A DNA stretch of 33,339 bases from a virus (lineage: Duplodnaviria > Heunggongvirae > Uroviricota > Caudoviricetes), in the IMG/VR virus record IMGVR_UViG_2531839180_000001; one strand, 5' to 3'. Made by a program: the position numbers and the translations under genes. Of the stretch, positions 1 to 33,339 are shown in pieces. Position 1 is the stretch's first letter, and the number at the start of each line of letters is the position of its first letter. A model generated the notes under the pieces. It was given only the letters and a program-made list of their open reading frames with translations. It had not been told where the DNA came from and made no database searches.

Positions 1-178
1 GTGACATCACCCCCCCCCGGATCATGGACGACTGGGGGCAGTAATCATGCCGGGTCTGGCTGGCTAACACCCCATTATAAGGGGTACGAATAAAGTAACG
101 GGGCCATGCTTACCTTAATAATCGATCTGTTAAACAGATAGATATTGATTTATCTATCGATTAAAACGATCAATACCA

Positions 179-207
179 TTGACAACTGTGTGGGATTTTG
201 TAGGATC
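179..207 (+). promoter_or_regulatory. candidate sigma70 promoter (TTGACA, 16-bp spacer, TAGGAT) with a GATC overlapping the -10
   Basis: TTGACA at 179-184 and TAGGAT at 201-206 read directly; GATC at 204-207; upstream of the 385..663 ORF. Confidence 0.3.
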
Positions 208-384: not shown

Positions 385-663
385 ATGGGTATAAAGATTT
401 GTAAAAATTCCCACCGATACAACCCCCAATACTCACACCTTCCCGATAACCAGGGGCAAACAGGCCGCCACCGCTGCGCAGCATGCGCATACGAGCTTGG
501 TGTACTTCACGCAATGATCGGTATTCCTAAAGCTAAAGATGATTCCTTCCTGGCAAATATTCCATATAGCCAGGCTGGCACAGTCAGACATAAAGACGCT
601 TTTGAGGCATACATGCTTGGGTACGACTATGCAATGAGCAGTGCTCTGCTCAAAGTTGCGTAA
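385..663 (+). CDS. hypothetical small protein (92 aa), prophage accessory gene at cos-proximal end
   Basis: ORF track 385..663; GAGGT about 9 nt upstream of ATG; Cys/His-containing N-terminal half (CKNSHRY...HRCAACAYELG); no family recognised. Confidence 0.4.
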   Translation: MGIKICKNSHRYNPQYSHLPDNQGQTGRHRCAACAYELGVLHAMIGIPKAKDDSFLANIPYSQAGTVRHKDAFEAYMLGYDYAMSSALLKVA

Positions 664-729
664 CGATTTTTGCTTTTTCACCACCTCAACAATGGTTGGC
701 GAGGTGGTTCTTCTGAAAAGGATAATCAA

Positions 730-1017
730 ATGACTGATATCAAAAGAAGCGACTTATTTTATGACGATTACAGTTGGACTGTTTTGCCAGGAGACGATCC
801 CACGAAAACCGCTACAGACCGCACTCGTTTCAGCCGTAAAGAAGGTTACGAGGTGTTAAGCATGCTTAACTCATTAAAAGAATTATCCCATAGAGAAAAA
901 CTCATTGCGGAGTGGATGATTCACGAGCATTTGCCGTCAAACATCCAAGGAAGGGAACAGGTAAAAAAATGGTTAAAGGATAACTTCTCTGAACTTAAGT
1001 CCCGTTACCCGCGATAA
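730..1017 (+). CDS. hypothetical small protein (95 aa)
   Basis: In frame with track ORF 670..1017; ATG at 730 chosen because AAGGA lies 7 nt upstream; no family recognised. Confidence 0.4.
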   Translation: MTDIKRSDLFYDDYSWTVLPGDDPTKTATDRTRFSRKEGYEVLSMLNSLKELSHREKLIAEWMIHEHLPSNIQGREQVKKWLKDNFSELKSRYPR

Positions 1018-1329: not shown

Positions 1330-1656
1330 CTAACCCGCCTGCAACAACTCCAGCGCCATCTGTTTTTCTTCCGGACGCATTCGTTCAATCAGCAGCTTTA
1401 ACACGCCATTCTCCAGCCCACTGGGCACCAGTGTGTGCGAGTAGGTCAGGTTCATCACCCAGGTGTGCCCGCACTCGAGACGGGTGCAACGGTAATAAAC
1501 ATCAGCAAACTGATCGGTTTTCCAGGCTGTTTTCTCAATGACTGCATGTGCACCACAGCAGTGACACCGCGCTTTCTGTCTGCGCATTTTCCACCTCCCG
1601 GAACAGCGTTTTACTGCTGCTGATTTTACCTGCTCCTTATCCATGTCGCACATCAC
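1330..1656 (-). CDS. Ogr/Delta-family zinc-finger late transcription activator (GTG start)
   Basis: C-x2-C, 22 residues, C-x4-C spacing (CHCC...YYRCTRLEC) matches the P2 Ogr / P4 Delta zinc finger; overlaps the portal gene stop by 4 nt. Confidence 0.55.
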   Translation of the reverse strand: MMCDMDKEQVKSAAVKRCSGRWKMRRQKARCHCCGAHAVIEKTAWKTDQFADVYYRCTRLECGHTWVMNLTYSHTLVPSGLENGVLKLLIERMRPEEKQMALELLQAG

Positions 1657-2687
1657 TCCGTGGATTCGTTAAATTCAAGAACAAATTCCACCTCCCCCAG
1701 TCGCCGGATATCCGGGTCGCTGTTGATCCCCTCCATAATCAGGCGGCGCATCGGGATAACCTCATCGCGGTAATAGGCCTCACGGGATTTCAGCGGATCA
1801 CCAAGACCAGCAGTGTTAGCAGGAATGATGCCGGCAAGCCCGGGTGGAAAACGGTGTGCCACGAGCTGATCCTGGGCACTGATGGTTTTTATATTCAGGA
1901 ACTCATCTTTTGTACCTGAATCCCCGATAGGGATCACCTTAACGCCTTCTTTGTCTCCGCCCGGTATATTGATAAACATGGATTTAAAATTGCCCGCCCC
2001 TTTTGACGCCTCTATCTTTTTACGGAATTCCGCCTCGAGCTCGGGATCCATGTCCGGGTCAGTGGAATACAGGATATAACCAAGATGTGCGCCGTTCTTG
2101 TAATACTTGCGGCGAAAGCGGGTGGCATCCACATTCAGCATGGCGGATTCCATCCCGTGAATATAATCCGGGACACCGTAAACCTGCTGTTGCGGGTCAT
2201 AAATGGCCACGAACACCGCTTCGCCTGGCGGGTAAACGAGATCTTCCAGTGCCGCCTGCACAATCACCGTGCCACCCTCGTTGTTACGCCGCAGGTACAG
2301 AGAAGGTAACGTATGCAGGCGCACCACCCGACCGAAGCCATTGCGCACTTTAAGCAACCCCATATCCCCGAATATCAGCAGATTGGTTACTGCTGCCGCC
2401 ATGGCGGCGTGTGTCATACCACCACCACCCCGAAAACCCTGCATGATCATATTGACGCGCGCACGCAATACCGCGCCGTGATACGGTGCGATATTGGCCA
2501 ACATGGCGAGATCCATGCGCTCAATGGGCGGCGTGTACCAGCCGTTATAGCCATCCCAGAGCGAGCCGTAATAACAGCCCCATGCAGCGACCGGTTCCGG
2601 GTCACCAAATTCAATAAACGTCATTTTGCTGGCTGTTTTTTTTGCCACGCCATCGTGTAGCACGGGGGATTTTTTCTTTTTACTCAT
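1653..2687 (-). CDS. portal protein (P2 gpQ-like, 344 aa)
   Basis: Length and position immediately downstream of the terminase ATPase gene, as in P2 Q-P; overlapping coupled genes. Confidence 0.85.
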   Translation of the reverse strand: MSKKKKSPVLHDGVAKKTASKMTFIEFGDPEPVAAWGCYYGSLWDGYNGWYTPPIERMDLAMLANIAPYHGAVLRARVNMIMQGFRGGGGMTHAAMAAAVTNLLIFGDMGLLKVRNGFGRVVRLHTLPSLYLRRNNEGGTVIVQAALEDLVYPPGEAVFVAIYDPQQQVYGVPDYIHGMESAMLNVDATRFRRKYYKNGAHLGYILYSTDPDMDPELEAEFRKKIEASKGAGNFKSMFINIPGGDKEGVKVIPIGDSGTKDEFLNIKTISAQDQLVAHRFPPGLAGIIPANTAGLGDPLKSREAYYRDEVIPMRRLIMEGINSDPDIRRLGEVEFVLEFNESTE

Positions 2688-4467
2688 CTGACAGGATCCA
2701 TGTTGATTTGCGCTTGTGCTTATAGTTCAGGGGTTCATTACTTGCGGCATGAGCTATGGCAAAGAAGATGTCAGCGTGCCCGGTTTCTTCGCTACGTTCA
2801 GCGGTAAAAGTAACTTTATTGCCACTGTTGGTGGATTCCTGACGAATGGCCAGAAATGATGCCGGAATATCCGTGGCTTCCTCATCCCACTCAATACGGT
2901 TGGCGTAAATCAGATCCAGCATCTTCATCACCAGACGGTTTTTGGATTCAACGCTGTAATGAATGGCCACTGTTTCACGGCGGGCAAATCCCTGAACCAG
3001 CTCAAAGACACCATAGCCAAGCCCGGTGACGTCAATGCCGATAAACGTCATGTTATAGCGCGCCTTAATGCTGCGGATACGCTCTGCCATAAACTGGAAT
3101 GACATGCTGCGCCAGTGGTGTTTTTCCAGCACGCGGAATCGTTCTGCCGCAACCAGCGGCGGTGACAGCACCACAAACGTGGCGTTATCGCCGGAGCGTG
3201 CAGGGTCAAAGCCCCCCCACACTTCACGGTTTCCAAATGGCATGGCATCTTCCGGGTGAAAATCCTCCCACGTACTGACATCAACGCCACAGCGCACGAG
3301 GTCATCGAATTTAAAGACGCTCTCTTTGTCATCCACAAACACGCACATGAACAGCATATTGAACGCTGTTTCGTTGTACCGCTCGCGCAGCTCGTTGATG
3401 TCAGCAAGGTTAAAGCCGCCGGCAATGGCATCTTCCAGCGTAACCACATAGCGCCACTGACCATCAGGGCATTCGCGCCCGCCATCGCGCAGTTCATCAA
3501 AGGACGGGAACTCAACCCCTTTTCGTTTCGGGTCACCTTTGCGCCATTCATCGCCAGACCAGAACGGGTAACCCTGGTGTGTTTTGGATGACGGCGTGGA
3601 GAAATAGGTAATGCGCCAGTGCGAGTGGGTAGCCATACCGGATGCCACTTCATTGAGACGACGAAAACCGGGGATCCACAGATATTCGTCAATATACAGG
3701 TGGCCGCTGTTTGACTGTGCCGTATTGCTGTTGGTCGCCAGAAAATACAGTTCAGCCAGATTGCTTAACTTAACCGGATTGCCTTTAATGGGGATGCCAA
3801 ATTCCGTTTGTGCAATTTTTACAATATAAGTACGGAACACTTCGGCCTGACGTTTTGATGCCGATAAAAATATCTGTGTGTCGCCGGTTAATACCGCATC
3901 TTCAAACGCCTCAAACGCGAAGTAATACGTCGCCCCAATCTGGCGGGATTTAAGCAGGTTCCGTACACGGCGGAATTTGTTTTCACGCAGGCGCAACTGA
4001 TAAGCAAACAGTTTCTTCGTAAACGGCTCAAAACTTTCAGCAGTCAGTCCGGAAACGTCATTAGTTTTGCGGGGACGCTCTTTCTTACCTGCACCTTTTT
4101 CTCCGCGTTCTTCTTTTCCATAACGGCCAGGCTGGGGGATGTCCACTCCCATTCGCGCAATCTCAGCCATTCGTTCCGTGTGCTTGTTTCTGACCGACAT
4201 TAGTTTGACGTGATGACCAATCAGGCGGTCGAGTTCATCGTGTTCTTCCGGCGTTTTATGGTCACGCTCCGCCAGTACAGCGAGACGCCGGGCGATAACA
4301 TCCTCCACACCTTCCGTATTGAGCTGCGTGTACCACTCAAACTTTGTCGCCCAGTAATAAACAATTCGCGGGCTGTTCAGTCCGAGTTTCTTTTGTATTT
4401 CTTTTGGTGTGTGCCTTTTCAGATAGAGCGATTTTGCAGCAGCAATCACCTCATCAGAATACGCCAT
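2680..4467 (-). CDS. terminase ATPase / large subunit (P2 gpP-like, 595 aa)
   Basis: 595 aa; Walker-A-like segment; divergent from the scaffold-capsid operon exactly as P2 P versus O-N-M-L. Confidence 0.9.
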   Translation of the reverse strand: MAYSDEVIAAAKSLYLKRHTPKEIQKKLGLNSPRIVYYWATKFEWYTQLNTEGVEDVIARRLAVLAERDHKTPEEHDELDRLIGHHVKLMSVRNKHTERMAEIARMGVDIPQPGRYGKEERGEKGAGKKERPRKTNDVSGLTAESFEPFTKKLFAYQLRLRENKFRRVRNLLKSRQIGATYYFAFEAFEDAVLTGDTQIFLSASKRQAEVFRTYIVKIAQTEFGIPIKGNPVKLSNLAELYFLATNSNTAQSNSGHLYIDEYLWIPGFRRLNEVASGMATHSHWRITYFSTPSSKTHQGYPFWSGDEWRKGDPKRKGVEFPSFDELRDGGRECPDGQWRYVVTLEDAIAGGFNLADINELRERYNETAFNMLFMCVFVDDKESVFKFDDLVRCGVDVSTWEDFHPEDAMPFGNREVWGGFDPARSGDNATFVVLSPPLVAAERFRVLEKHHWRSMSFQFMAERIRSIKARYNMTFIGIDVTGLGYGVFELVQGFARRETVAIHYSVESKNRLVMKMLDLIYANRIEWDEEATDIPASFLAIRQESTNSGNKVTFTAERSEETGHADIFFAIAHAASNEPLNYKHKRKSTWILSDE

Positions 4468-24387: not shown

Positions 24388-24528
24388 ATGTCGCAAAAAT
24401 CGCTTATAGCCATCACGTTCTGCGTGACGGCAATCCTCATCATCTGGATGCTGCACGGTTCGCTGTGCGAGATACGGATGAGATTCTGGGGAGCGGAGTT
24501 TGCGGCGTTCTTACAGTGTAAGCAGTAA
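24388..24528 (+). CDS. Hok/Gef-family type I toxin (46 aa)
   Basis: AAGGAG 9 nt upstream of ATG; MSQKSLIAITFCVTAILIIWMLHGSLCEIRMRFWGAEFAAFLQCKQ has an N-terminal TM helix and the SLCE(I/L) core of Hok proteins; below the ORF-track size cutoff. Confidence 0.7.
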   Translation: MSQKSLIAITFCVTAILIIWMLHGSLCEIRMRFWGAEFAAFLQCKQ

Positions 24529-24616
24529 GGAAACCGCGACGGGGGAGTAATCCCCCGTCAATCGGTTGCTAAGGTTGGCTGAAGTGGCACCCTATCTCAC
24601 AGACATGAACAACAAA

Positions 24617-24648
24617 CCCGCAGCGTAAAAACTGCGGGTTTTCTTTTT
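24617..24648 (+). terminator. rho-independent terminator downstream of the hok-like gene
   Basis: CCCGCAG / CTGCGGG stem followed by TTTTCTTTTT. Confidence 0.7.
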
Positions 24649-24694
24649 GTTGCCCTCACAAATGAGGGTGACACTATTCGTAAGCAATAGGCAT

Positions 24695-24740
24695 GACAGA
24701 TCGATGCAATAAATCCGATCGATAAAAACGATCGATTTGT
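24695..24740 (+). promoter_or_regulatory. cluster of three GATC (Dam) sites upstream of the com-methyltransferase operon
   Basis: GATC at 24699, 24717 and 24730 within about 35 bp, 50-80 bp upstream of the com start. Confidence 0.5.
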
Positions 24741-24780
24741 TATCATATCGGCAGCAGTAACCACACAAGAGGTGCCGCAA

Positions 24781-24978
24781 ATGACGCAAAATGTACGATG
24801 CAAAAATTGCAACAAACTACTTGCCCGCGCCTCATTTCACTACATTGAAATAAAATGTCCGCGCTGCAAAACACTTAACCAGATAACGAGAGCCATTGAG
24901 CACCCCACACACATGAGGAGTTATGACCGTGGGGATCGCAATCCAGCACCAACCAGCACATACACCGGAACACACTAA
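24781..24978 (+). CDS. com: Com-like zinc-finger translational activator
   Basis: VRCKNCNKLL...HYIEIKCPRCK closely matches phage Mu Com as I recall it; AAGAGG SD; ORF overlaps the methyltransferase start by 56 nt. Confidence 0.75.
   Translation: MTQNVRCKNCNKLLARASFHYIEIKCPRCKTLNQITRAIEHPTHMRSYDRGDRNPAPTSTYTGTH
24903..24934 (+). promoter_or_regulatory. hairpin sequestering the methyltransferase SD and start codon
   Basis: CCCCAC (24903-24908) pairs with GTGGGG (24929-24934); the loop holds GAGGAG and ATG 24923. Confidence 0.5.
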
Positions 24979-25729
24979 GGTTTATCAGACTGACAATGCC
25001 ACGCTCTGTCGTGGGAATGCGCTGGAAATATTGCCGCTGATTGAGCCAGAAAGCATTGATGCCTTAATCACTGACCCACCTTACAGTTCGGGTGCGACAC
25101 ACAAGGCCGGACGCACCAACCAGGGCAGCCATGCAAAATATCTGAACGGCGAGAACCTTCACCGCTTTGATGGGTTCGCGGGTGAAAACATGGACGCCCG
25201 TTCGTGGGCTTACTGGACACAATTATGGATGGCACAGGCACACCGCGCAGTCAGGCCGGGCGGTTATGCCCTGGTATTTACTGACTGGCGACAACTACCA
25301 GCTTTAACCGATGCGTTTCAGGCCAGTGGCTTTACATGGCGCGGCATCATTGCGTGGAACAAGGGGAGGGGGTCACGAACACCCCATACCGGGTATTTCC
25401 GGCATCAGTGCGAATACATTGTCTGGGGCAGCAAAGGCCATTTAGATAAATCGCCTTCGGGGCCGTTCGACGGCTGCATGACGTTCCCGGTTATCCCGTC
25501 AAAGAAAATGCACCCGACCGGAAAACCAGAAGAACTAATGGCAGAGCTGGTCAGAACTGCGAATAGTGGCGGAACAGTCCTTGATCCCTTTATGGGGTCA
25601 GGAACAACGGGTGTGGCTGCACTGAAAGCAGGGCGAAAATTTATTGGTATAGAAACCAGTGATCATTATTTTGAGGTAGCAGCGCAGCGGCTTCGGGGGA
25701 CTATTACCACAACCATTTCGGCTACATAA
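24923..25729 (+). CDS. DNA N6-adenine methyltransferase, beta-class (DPPY before FxGxG), orphan
   Basis: DPPY motif IV near the N-terminus and DPFMGSGTTG motif I near the C-terminus; no adjacent restriction endonuclease gene. Confidence 0.85.
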   Translation: MTVGIAIQHQPAHTPEHTKVYQTDNATLCRGNALEILPLIEPESIDALITDPPYSSGATHKAGRTNQGSHAKYLNGENLHRFDGFAGENMDARSWAYWTQLWMAQAHRAVRPGGYALVFTDWRQLPALTDAFQASGFTWRGIIAWNKGRGSRTPHTGYFRHQCEYIVWGSKGHLDKSPSGPFDGCMTFPVIPSKKMHPTGKPEELMAELVRTANSGGTVLDPFMGSGTTGVAALKAGRKFIGIETSDHYFEVAAQRLRGTITTTISAT

Positions 25730-29894: not shown

Positions 29895-29956
29895 CCTAAA
29901 GAATCAAGACGATCCGGTACGCGTGATTTTCTTTTCACATTAATCTGGTCAATAAC

Positions 29957-29985
29957 CTTGAATAATTGAGGGATGACCTCATTTA
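29957..29985 (+). promoter_or_regulatory. sigma32 heat-shock promoter of clpB
   Basis: CTTGAATA, 13-bp spacer, CCTCATTTA fits the sigma32 consensus CTTGAAA / CCCCATNT. Confidence 0.55.
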
Positions 29986-30023
29986 ATCTCCAGTAGCAAC
30001 TTTGATCCGTTATGGGAGGAGTT

Positions 30024-32597
30024 ATGCGTCTGGATCGTCTTACTAATAAATTCCAGCTTGCTCTTGCCGATGCCCAATCACTTGCACTCGGGCACGACAA
30101 CCAATTCATCGAACCACTTCATTTAATGAGCGCCCTGCTGAATCAGGAAGGGGGTTCGGTTAGTCCTTTATTAACATCCGCCGGCATCAATGCTGGTCAG
30201 TTGCGCACAGATATCAATCAGGCATTAAATCGTTTACCGCAGGTTGAAGGCACTGGTGGCGATGTCCAGCCCTCACAGGATCTGGTGCGCGTTCTTAATC
30301 TTTGCGACAAGCTGGCGCAAAAACGTGGTGATAATTTTATCTCGTCAGAACTGTTCGTTCTGGCGGCACTTGAGTCTCGCGGCACGCTGGCCGACATCCT
30401 GAAAGCAGCAGGGGCGACCACCGCCAACATTACTCAAGCGATTGAACAAATGCGTGGAGGTGAAAGCGTGAACGATCAAGGAGCTGAAGACCAACGTCAG
30501 GCTTTGAAAAAATACACTATCGACCTCACCGAACGAGCCGAACAAGGCAAACTCGATCCGGTGATTGGCCGTGATGAAGAAATTCGCCGTACCATTCAGG
30601 TACTGCAACGTCGTACTAAAAATAACCCGGTGCTGATTGGTGAACCAGGCGTTGGTAAAACAGCCATCGTTGAAGGTCTGGCTCAGCGTATTATCAATGG
30701 CGAAGTGCCGGAAGGGTTGAAAGGCCGCCGCGTACTGGCGCTGGATATGGGCGCGCTGGTGGCTGGGGCGAAATATCGCGGTGAGTTTGAAGAGCGTTTA
30801 AAAGGCGTACTTAACGATCTTGCCAAACAGGAAGGCAACGTCATCCTGTTTATCGACGAATTACATACCATGGTCGGCGCGGGTAAAGCCGATGGCGCAA
30901 TGGATGCCGGCAACATGCTGAAACCGGCGCTGGCGCGTGGTGAATTGCACTGCGTAGGTGCCACGACACTGGACGAATATCGCCAGTACATCGAAAAAGA
31001 TGCTGCGCTGGAACGTCGTTTCCAGAAAGTGTTTGTTGCCGAGCCAACCGTGGAAGACACCATTGCTATTCTGCGTGGCCTGAAAGAACGTTATGAACTG
31101 CACCACCATGTGCAAATTACTGACCCGGCAATTGTTGCAGCGGCGACGTTGTCTCATCGCTACATTGCTGACCGTCAGCTGCCGGATAAAGCCATCGACC
31201 TAATCGATGAAGCAGCATCCAGCATTCGTATGCAGATTGACTCAAAACCAGAGGAACTCGACCGACTCGATCGTCGTATCATCCAGCTCAAACTGGAACA
31301 ACAGGCGCTAATGAAAGAGTCTGATGAAGCCAGTAAAAAACGCCTGGATATGCTCAACGAAGAACTGAGCGACAAAGAACGTCAGTATTCCGAGTTAGAA
31401 GAAGAGTGGAAAGCTGAGAAAGCATCGCTCTCTGGTACGCAGACCATTAAAGCGGAACTGGAGCAGGCGAAAATCGCCATTGAACAGGCTCGCCGTGTTG
31501 GGGATCTGGCGCGGATGTCTGAACTGCAATACGGCAAAATTCCAGAACTGGAAAAGCAACTGGAAGCCGCTACGCAGCTCGAAGGCAAAACTATGCGTCT
31601 CTTGCGTAATAAAGTGACCGACGCCGAAATTGCTGAAGTGCTGGCGCGTTGGACGGGGATTCCGGTTTCTCGCATGATGGAAAGCGAGCGCGAAAAACTG
31701 CTGCGTATGGAGCAAGAACTGCACCATCGCGTTATTGGTCAGAACGAAGCGGTTGATGCGGTATCTAACGCTATTCGTCGTAGCCGTGCGGGGCTTGCGG
31801 ATCCAAATCGCCCGATTGGTTCATTTCTGTTCCTTGGGCCAACTGGTGTGGGTAAAACTGAACTTTGTAAGGCGCTGGCGAACTTTATGTTCGATAGCGA
31901 CGAGGCGATGGTTCGTATCGATATGTCCGAATTTATGGAGAAACACTCGGTGTCTCGTCTGGTTGGTGCGCCTCCGGGATATGTCGGTTATGAAGAAGGT
32001 GGCTACCTGACCGAAGCGGTGCGTCGTCGTCCGTATTCCGTCATCCTGCTGGATGAAGTGGAAAAAGCGCATCCGGATGTCTTCAACATTCTGTTGCAGG
32101 TACTGGATGATGGGCGTCTGACTGACGGGCAGGGGAGAACGGTCGACTTCCGTAATACGGTTGTCATTATGACCTCTAACCTCGGTTCCGATTTGATTCA
32201 GGAACGCTTCGGTGAACTGGATTATGCGCACATGAAAGAGCTGGTACTCGGTGTGGTAAGCCATAACTTCCGTCCGGAATTCATTAACCGTATCGATGAA
32301 GTGGTGGTCTTCCATCCGCTGGGTGAACAGCACATTACGTCGATTGCGCAGATTCAGTTGAAACGTCTGTACAAACGTCTGGAAGAACGTGGTTATGAAA
32401 TCCACATTTCTGACGAGGCGCTGAAACTGCTGAGCGAGAACGGTTACGATCCGGTCTATGGTGCACGTCCTCTGAAACGTGCTATCCAGCAGCAGATCGA
32501 AAACCCGCTGGCACAGCAAATACTGTCTGGTGAATTGGTTCCGGGTAAAGTTATTCGCCTGGAAGTTAATGAAGACAGGATTGTCGCCGTCCAGTAA
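30024..32597 (+). CDS. clpB: chaperone disaggregase ClpB
   Basis: 857 aa from ATG 30024 (GGAGG RBS; track ORF starts 12 nt earlier); two AAA+ modules with GEPGVGKT and GPTGVGKT Walker A motifs. Confidence 0.97.
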
Positions 32598-33039: not shown

Positions 33040-33339
33040 AAATTGAAGAGTTTGATCATGGCTCAGATTGAACGCTGGCGGCAGGCCTAACACATGCAAG
33101 TCGAACGGTAACAGGAATCAGCTTGCTGATTCGCTGACGAGTGGCGGACGGGTGAGTAATGTCTGGGAAACTGCCTGATGGAGGGGGATAACTACTGGAA
33201 ACGGTAGCTAATACCGCATAACGTCGCAAGACCAAAGAGGGGGACCTTCGGGCCTCTTGCCATCGGATGTGCCCAGATGGGATTAGCTAGTAGGTGGGGT
33301 AACGGCTCACCTAGGCGACGATCCCTAGCTGGTCTGAGA
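33040..33339 (+). rRNA. rrs: 16S ribosomal RNA, 5' partial (first 300 nt)
   Basis: Starts AAATTGAAGAGTTTGATCATGGCTCAG; Escherichia-type sequence with a variant V1 helix (GGAATCAGCTTGCTGATTC). Confidence 0.97.

Follow-up and report, generated by a model that had tools for sequence, protein, structure and literature searches.

The window analysed in this work is a stretch of 33,339 nucleotides (nt) from a virus of the class Caudoviricetes (IMG/VR record IMGVR_UViG_2531839180_000001), and close to its left end it carries two small co-oriented open reading frames, ORF1 (385-663, plus strand) and ORF2 (730-1017, plus strand), which are the subject of this study. A first-pass annotation made from the sequence alone had described them as two tandem genes with credible ribosome-binding sites whose products belong to no recognised family, and had placed them at a cos-proximal edge, in the position of the P2 tin/old variable region, where they might form a toxin-antitoxin or two-component exclusion module.

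The chromosome of Escherichia coli ECL27977 was found to be 99.9-100% identical to the window, and its prophage adjoins pheA, an arrangement that was also present in four other complete assemblies. The annotated gene order in ECL27977 starts with int, C and cox and continues with the replication endonuclease gene (gpA), ParM, a ParR-like gene whose stop codon lies 26 nt left of position 1 of the window, ORF1, ORF2, Ogr/Delta, portal (gpQ) and terminase; the Prokaryotic Genome Annotation Pipeline (PGAP) left ORF1 uncalled and listed ORF2 as a hypothetical protein (WP_000129682.1). This order places ORF1 and ORF2 between gpA and gpQ of a P2-like prophage, in the interval described as the P2 tin/old defence hotspot by Rousset et al. 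2022 (PMC9122126), and thus bears out the position assigned to the genes by the first-pass annotation. Because the P2 cos 19-mer was not found within 5 mismatches anywhere in positions 1-2000 of the window, the term cos-proximal rests on the gpA-gpQ synteny. The cargo region also extends left of position 1, as the first-pass annotation had suspected, because a ParM/ParR (StbA/Plasmid_stab_B) cassette is located there (10696-11974 of locus L001). It comes after gpA in the prophage as integrated, and P88-like Xuanwuvirus phages have one in the corresponding position; the cassette gave no sign of a centromere-like repeat array. A partition system in this slot was noted by Rousset et al. 2022 (PMC9122126) in about a quarter of P2-like phages, and the arrangement of the window is already present in their Table S5A, for which no report of an anti-phage test was found in the literature searched. 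The cargo varied among close phages, with different gene sets 3' of ParR in P88, Chuche, 520873 and the window, and few of the complete E. coli genomes (7 of 5426) contained the ORF1-ORF2 pair.

ORF1 starts with an ATG preceded, 10 nt upstream, by a Shine-Dalgarno sequence (GAGG, 371-374), and encodes a protein of 92 amino acids (aa) with an isoelectric point (pI) of 8.8 that belongs to the family phrog_3941. Comparison with sister prophages gave a ratio of nonsynonymous to synonymous substitution rates (dN/dS) of 0.06-0.09, which indicated purifying selection. The protein consists largely of two tandem repeats of about 33 aa, residues 14-46 and 54-86 (hhalign probability 98.8%, E = 1e-16), that follow the pattern LPxxQxGxxRH[KR]...AYxxGY and each contain a Q-x-G-x-x-R-H-[KR] loop followed by a helix. 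Residues C6, H10, C31 and C34 were shared by at least 90% of the 63 family members in the alignment, and they are proposed to constitute a zinc site. In the structural model of ORF1 (predicted local distance difference test, pLDDT, 92.6) C31 and C34 are located at the start of helix 32-44, and the protein may be a zinc finger of the treble-clef type, in which two ligands come from a knuckle and two from the N terminus of a helix; the model had no match among solved structures. An exhaustive profile search retrieved 502 cluster representatives of the ORF1 family.

The start codon of ORF2 is the ATG at position 730, located 7 nt downstream of an AAGGA Shine-Dalgarno sequence (718-722), and a longer version starting at a TTG at position 670 was unsupported by the homologue alignment. 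The gene encodes a 95-aa protein (pI 8.0) of the families phrog_33929 and phrog_32103 with two conserved motifs, GDDPxK...D..RFSRKEGYEV and EWMIHExLP. In the structural model (pLDDT 83.6), the first and most conserved of these motifs falls partly within a low-confidence loop and is followed by a C-terminal three-helix bundle, and no structural neighbour was found among solved structures or viral models. A profile search retrieved 485 proteins, and the best 120 of the 485 were unnamed stand-alone proteins of 86-130 aa, most of about 100 aa. Members of the family from E. coli to Cupriavidus and Pseudomonas share 55-62% identity, and the family extends to Desulfovibrio, Acetobacter and Bacteroidetes; a tblastn search of ORF2 against the phage collection gave no match. 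When codons 31-95 were compared with sister prophages, the proportion of nonsynonymous differences (pN) was about 0.18 and that of synonymous differences (pS) 0.78-0.98, i.e. purifying selection with synonymous sites near saturation. Because of these low ratios, ORF1 and ORF2 are regarded as real genes, and the earlier description of two small co-oriented genes with ribosome-binding sites was thus confirmed by the coordinates, the Shine-Dalgarno matches, the purifying selection and the size of both homologue families. A recombination junction was located inside ORF2 near nt 820 (about codon 30), at the stretch coding for RFSRKEGYEV, since the sliding-identity profile against sister prophages dropped from 90-100% upstream of this point to 60-77%, with saturated synonymous sites, downstream of it. 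A mosaic joint between ORF1 and ORF2, which had been considered on the basis of their synonymous divergence (0.11 vs 1.2), was therefore rejected, and as the drop lies within ORF2 it has no bearing on the independence of the two genes and was dropped as an argument.

Upstream of ORF1, a conserved operator-like block (115-178, plus strand) precedes a sigma-70-like candidate promoter for ORF1 and ORF2 (TTGACA-16 nt-TAGGAT, 179-206, plus strand; 10 of 12 consensus positions). The block contains an imperfect palindrome, ATCGATCTGTTAAACAGATAGAT (121-143), and a second palindrome, ATCTATCGAT (152-161), and three conserved GATC sites are found upstream of ORF1 at positions 124, 168 and 204, the last of which (204-207) overlaps the -10 box. 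The whole stretch 115-280 was almost invariant between the clade of the window and the diverged clade of phage 520873, whose flanking sequences differ, and it was not found in the ParMR phages P88 and Chuche, both of which lack ORF1. The conserved block with its predicted, consensus-type promoter thus travels with ORF1. A GC-rich hairpin with an 11-bp stem (252-279) lies in the ORF1 leader; its stem is conserved in both clades and its loop differs, and a TTTT run is found 3' of it on the minus strand only. The spacer between the two genes (66 nt, 664-729, plus strand) could form a stem (680-687/701-708, extended by 674-678/715-720; -20.9 kcal/mol, z = -2.0, a weak signal) whose extension would draw part of the Shine-Dalgarno sequence of ORF2 into the pairing. 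The plus-strand cargo is closed by a 21-bp hairpin (1047-1091; arms of 21 nt, -48.3 kcal/mol, z = -6.9) that occupies the same place in Salmonella prophages. The first-pass annotation had recognised this large hairpin and called it bidirectional, a term that applies only in part; because the T-run is on the minus-strand side only, the structure would chiefly serve to terminate the leftward Ogr/portal/terminase transcript, and for ORF1-ORF2 it is likely to act as a 3' stabiliser or stop.

Neither protein could be assigned to a named family, in agreement with the first-pass annotation. Searches of ORF1 and ORF2 against Pfam and NCBIfam gave no match, including matches to toxin or antitoxin families, and PHROGs returned only families of unknown function. 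No match was obtained among the sequences of solved structures, and BLASTP comparisons with P2 Tin, Old and Orf91 gave E values of at least 0.68 for all pairs. ORF1 had no match in PADLOC-DB 2.0, where ORF2 gave only a chance-level match to PDC-S02 (E = 0.0046, covering 58 residues of a 390-position model). The profile and structure searches that had been recommended as a check were thus performed with both proteins and revealed only unnamed families with no solved-structure counterpart, and neither ORF matched conserved replication or regulatory proteins. Literature searches with the accession numbers, the PHROG identifiers and the names DUF6996/6997/7226 returned no papers.

The distribution of the two families was then compared across all fetched loci. 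A relative of ORF2 was present in 5 of the 86 ORF1-family loci and a relative of ORF1 in 5 of the 31 ORF2-family loci, and all five co-occurrence loci belong to one enterobacterial P2-like lineage; no conserved partner gene was found for either ORF. Relatives of ORF1 unaccompanied by ORF2 occur at the same gpA-gpQ site in phage 520873; a P22-like phage carries one downstream of cI (the rex position), and a Providencia phage has one between Q and the lysis genes. Among 80 IMG/VR loci, four context classes were seen: in P2-like phages after ParMR, after cI, beside umuDC-like genes and gtrAB, and near Q or lysis genes. ORF1 relatives are thus present sporadically and at differing positions in unrelated phages, as is characteristic of morons.

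ORF2 relatives unaccompanied by ORF1 were found in a range of locations and had no neighbour conserved across loci. One is the last gene before the portal gene in a Pectobacterium P2-like prophage, another follows GajA/GajB (Gabija) on Cupriavidus pHG1, a third adjoins a patatin gene in Pseudomonas, and a fourth is part of Tn7-like cargo in Aeromonas, while further copies were found beside AbiH, KwaB (Kiwa), RteC or a P4-type integrase. On ColE1-type plasmids of 3.9-9.3 kb, a relative 55% identical to ORF2 precedes, in the same orientation and at a distance of 86 nt, a gene for a HindIII-family (EcoVIII-like) restriction enzyme, with the methyltransferase gene convergent; intact ORF2-family genes were located upstream of the enzyme gene in pEC886 (NC_019079.1, 386-664) and in pKOr019_4 (about 1144-1431). 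The ORF2 relative occupies the slot where a C protein would sit, and the two pEC156/EcoVIII papers searched make no mention of an ORF2-like gene.

Outside enterobacterial phages, a different association emerged for ORF1. A metagenome scan yielded 488 relatives, and at the 65 loci for which neighbouring genes were available a restriction-modification-type gene was present within three genes in 30 and a D12-class (Dam-like) methyltransferase was a neighbour in 25. The nuclease partners belong to four families, namely DpnII, MutH-like, PDDEXK_11 and a DUF6996/6997/7226 protein. GATC is the site recognised by DpnII and by MutH/Sau3AI-type enzymes, and because the partners span four families the link of ORF1 appears to be with GATC-type modification rather than with one nuclease. 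At one locus (L006), the genes for the ORF1 relative and the methyltransferase overlap at the start of the latter, and a separate helix-turn-helix (HTH) gene is also present. In longer proteins the ORF1 domain is fused to DndB/DpdB-like proteins, a WYL regulator, HNH_2 nucleases and NOV_C proteins, and the NOV_C fusions, which often carry two N-terminal half-repeats, score as the PADLOC candidate PDC-S36. This pattern of cassettes and fusions is what would be expected of a DNA-reading or regulatory module and, together with the chemistry of the conserved residues, it led us to infer that ORF1 may be a zinc-dependent protein of this kind.

The explanation that we favour, and that we regard as reasonably probable, is that ORF1 and ORF2 are single-gene accessory elements (morons), each mobile on its own, that are stacked in the gpA-gpQ hotspot to the right of ParM/ParR, with a role in DNA-level conflict, rather than a toxin-antitoxin or obligate two-protein system. 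In the lysogen, both genes would probably be transcribed from the candidate promoter of ORF1 and the transcript stopped at the 1047-1091 hairpin, and each product would act alone in the conflict among the prophage, other phages and restriction systems. Outside enterobacterial phages, ORF1 would accompany Dam/DpnII-type (GATC) restriction-modification cassettes as an accessory gene. ORF2 is a solitary helical protein of about 100 aa, from a highly conserved family whose members hitch-hike beside many unrelated defence systems and on mobile elements.

Several observations weigh against this explanation. The close clade (ORF1 at least 92% identical), which comprises the seven E. coli genomes, Salmonella and five IMG/VR contigs, always has both ORFs, and the two genes have one common promoter candidate and one terminator; because of this constant pairing and the common signals, ORF1 and ORF2 may be functionally coupled in this particular lineage. 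A restriction-modification neighbour is missing from about half of the ORF1 relatives in metagenomes, and the plasmid-borne copies of ORF1 sit among toxin-antitoxin and partition genes. The adjacency of ORF2 to defence islands is anecdotal, amounting to about a dozen loci. Finally, the promoter of ORF1 and the terminators are consensus-level calls, and zinc and DNA binding by ORF1 would follow from residue conservation and domain partners.

Among the alternatives, the one that survives best, although we consider it doubtful, is that both genes are devoted to counter-defence (anti-restriction), i.e. that they are phage-captured stand-alone copies of accessory proteins used by restriction systems, so that ORF1 would mask, or compete for, the sites of nucleases containing the same domain and ORF2 would dampen a restriction or defence effector. 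The ORF1 domain is indeed the non-catalytic part of HNH and NOV_C nucleases as well as an accessory of GATC restriction-modification cassettes, a relative of ORF2 is directly upstream of the EcoVIII-like restriction enzyme gene, the strong conservation of ORF2 across phyla is as expected of a protein that targets a conserved partner, and the same prophage carries a com-mom-like anti-restriction module. However, ORF1 relatives are found in slots typical of genes expressed in the lysogen (downstream of cI and next to gtrAB), neither protein resembles any known anti-restriction protein, and ORF2 relatives adjoin intact defence systems in chromosomal islands, where an inhibitor would be counter-productive.

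More speculatively, and only as a tentative proposal, ORF1 could be the phage-borne form of a previously undescribed two-repeat Cys/His zinc-finger reader of the methylation state of GATC or similar sites. Such a protein would be a non-HTH controller or safety factor in DpnII/Dam-type cassettes and the targeting module of NOV_C/HNH_2 nucleases. In temperate phages it would occur by itself, downstream of a promoter with three conserved GATC sites, and serve to distinguish resident DNA from incoming DNA or to protect the DNA of the phage. A further general accessory of defence loci, likewise undescribed, would then be ORF2, for instance in the C-protein position of EcoVIII-type systems.

It is unlikely that ORF1 regulates transcription or translation with ORF2 as its effector, the two forming a lineage-specific pair comparable with com-mom of Mu or with a C protein and its restriction enzyme. 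The predicted DNA-binding character of ORF1, the palindromes at its own promoter, a spacer hairpin that could occlude the ORF2 Shine-Dalgarno sequence and the overlap of the ORF1 relative with the methyltransferase gene in L006 would all suit such an arrangement, but the z-score of the spacer hairpin is only -2.0, ORF2 is found without ORF1 in 26 of 31 loci, and ORF1 is normally found without ORF2. C proteins and Mu Com are, like many relatives of ORF1 and the ORF2 relative of pEC886-type plasmids rather than the copies in the window, small proteins encoded in one operon with methyltransferase or restriction enzyme genes, and ORF1 shares with Com the possession of a Cys/His cluster. In contrast, C proteins are HTH proteins, whereas neither ORF matches any HTH family and the ORF1 model has no neighbour among solved structures, and none of the searches revealed a resemblance to Com.

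The module proposed by the first-pass annotation, a toxin-antitoxin or two-component phage-exclusion system working only as a pair, appears quite improbable. Both genes are small, adjacent and co-oriented on a mobile element, as in type II toxin-antitoxin systems, and they share candidate signals and always occur together in the close enterobacterial clade; nevertheless, pairing is not obligate, given that the families are phyletically independent and that ORF1 alone (520873-type phages) and ORF2 alone (the Pectobacterium prophage) occupy the same site in P2-like elements, neither has a conserved partner, neither shows a toxin, antitoxin or PADLOC match, and the genes do not overlap but are separated by the 66-nt spacer.

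A role of ORF1, alone or together with ORF2, as an accessory of the ParMR partition cassette, with the palindromic block as its centromere, is highly unlikely and was rejected. Although an ORF1 relative directly follows ParM-ParR in about 40 IMG/VR P2-like loci and the block contains repeated palindromes, the block travels with ORF1 and is missing from both ParMR loci checked (P88 and Chuche). ORF1 itself is lacking in most ParMR phage records whose ParM is at least 94% identical (those of P88, P884B11, Chuche, PhiR44_2 and others), and it also occurs where ParMR is absent, namely in lambdoid phages, in restriction-modification cassettes and on plasmids.

Several known systems come close to ORF1 and ORF2. 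The cargo at the old/tin and gpA-gpQ positions of P2 (Rousset et al. 2022, PMC9122126; NAR 2026, PMC13586616) occupies the same slot and likewise consists of small cassettes that vary between similar phages, but Tin, Old and Orf91 show no sequence similarity to either protein, and ORF1 and ORF2 are read rightward with the early genes whereas old-tin is read leftward from near cos. ORF1 relatives of P22-like and other lambdoid phages lie in exactly the slots of lambdoid morons and lysogenic-conversion genes (the rexAB slot, cargo after Q or the lysis genes, gtrABC), and ORF1 of the window travels with its own promoter-like block, in which the candidate promoter is a consensus-level match at 10 of 12 positions, while a conserved hairpin is found 3' of ORF2; however, RexA/B, SieB, Bor, Lom and the other named morons showed no homology. 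The effectors with NOV_C/DUF3883 domains (PADLOC PDC-S36, PD-T4-1, Tiamat TmtA) resemble the fused relatives of ORF1, proteins of about 270-290 aa in which one or two copies of the N-terminal repeat of ORF1 are fused to NOV_C (2.9e-42 to 8.7e-47 against PDC-S36), but the PADLOC match covers the NOV_C half only, and ORF1 itself contains no nuclease domain.

The stacking of cargo in the P2 defence hotspot is a known phenomenon, and the arrangement of the window has already been catalogued. The predicted fold of ORF1, its repeat architecture and its link with GATC-type restriction-modification appear to be unreported in the libraries and literature searched, and two sizeable families that curated libraries do not describe, comprising the 502 cluster representatives for ORF1 and the 485 proteins for ORF2, are brought to light. 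If ORF1 were a DNA-reading or regulatory module, it would constitute a new regulatory or targeting element for restriction biology. The ORF2 family, in turn, includes an unremarked gene beside ecoVIIIR on the well-studied pEC156-type plasmids, and because of this adjacency the role of the family could be addressed in an existing experimental system.

Other features of the region lie outside the gene module. An insertion of about 115 nt (1-112), located between the ParR stop codon and the promoter block of ORF1, is identical to the outermost 91-100 nt or so of ISEc20, an insertion sequence (IS) of the IS110 family, from the side upstream of the transposase gene. It has no counterpart in three sister prophages (L002, L013 and L022), positions 13-103 are 100% identical to an IS end annotated in LC567822, and a G8...C9 inverted run is present at its start; the insertion looks like a solo IS-end remnant. 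On the minus strand of the ORF1 leader (245-350), a candidate antisense RNA of about 65 nt, running from about 315 to 245, would be delimited by a promoter-like sequence (TTTACA-17-TACGAT, 350-322) and a hairpin terminator (279-252), both consensus-level calls, and the -35 box and a usable -10 box (TAAAAT) are kept in the diverged 520873 clade. An Rfam scan of positions 1-1700 identified no family, and the matches to NsiR1, sar and Spot 42 were all below threshold.

To the right of the cargo, the gene for an Ogr/Delta-like zinc-finger late activator (PF04606; 1330-1656, minus strand) overlaps the stop codon of the gpQ-like portal gene (1653-2687, minus strand), which forms the right border of the hotspot, and the terminase gene (2680-4467) belongs to the same leftward transcript. 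The Ogr/Delta gene adjoins the portal gene rather than being located near int, and the late region (1330-23556) is a hybrid that combines a P2-type portal, terminase, scaffold, capsid and small terminase with tail genes of the DUF2586, tape-measure and baseplate J type. Beside the 1047-1091 hairpin and about 540 nt from the portal gene, a 19-mer, GACAAGCGAAGCGCGTCAG (1093-1111), is 100% conserved in four other P2-like loci, where GACAAGCGAAGCGCGTCAG overlaps the 3' end of the portal gene, and the stretch 1203-1307 is 94% identical to the sequence just after ParR in phage Chuche; both might serve as landmarks of packaging or recombination.

At the far end of the prophage (about 24388-25729), a Hok/Gef toxin gene accompanies a Mu-like com-mom arrangement, in which a Com-family gene (about 24781-24978) overlaps a gene for a 268-aa protein annotated as a DNA-methyltransferase (24923-25729). 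Just upstream of these com-mom-like genes, a stretch of 32 nt contains three GATC sites (24699, 24717 and 24730), an arrangement that resembles the Dam/OxyR-controlled mom promoter. The host genes right of the prophage are raiA, bamD, rluD, yfiH and clpB, and the window also includes the RyfD small RNA (29905-30043) and the start of a 16S rRNA gene (33040-33339).

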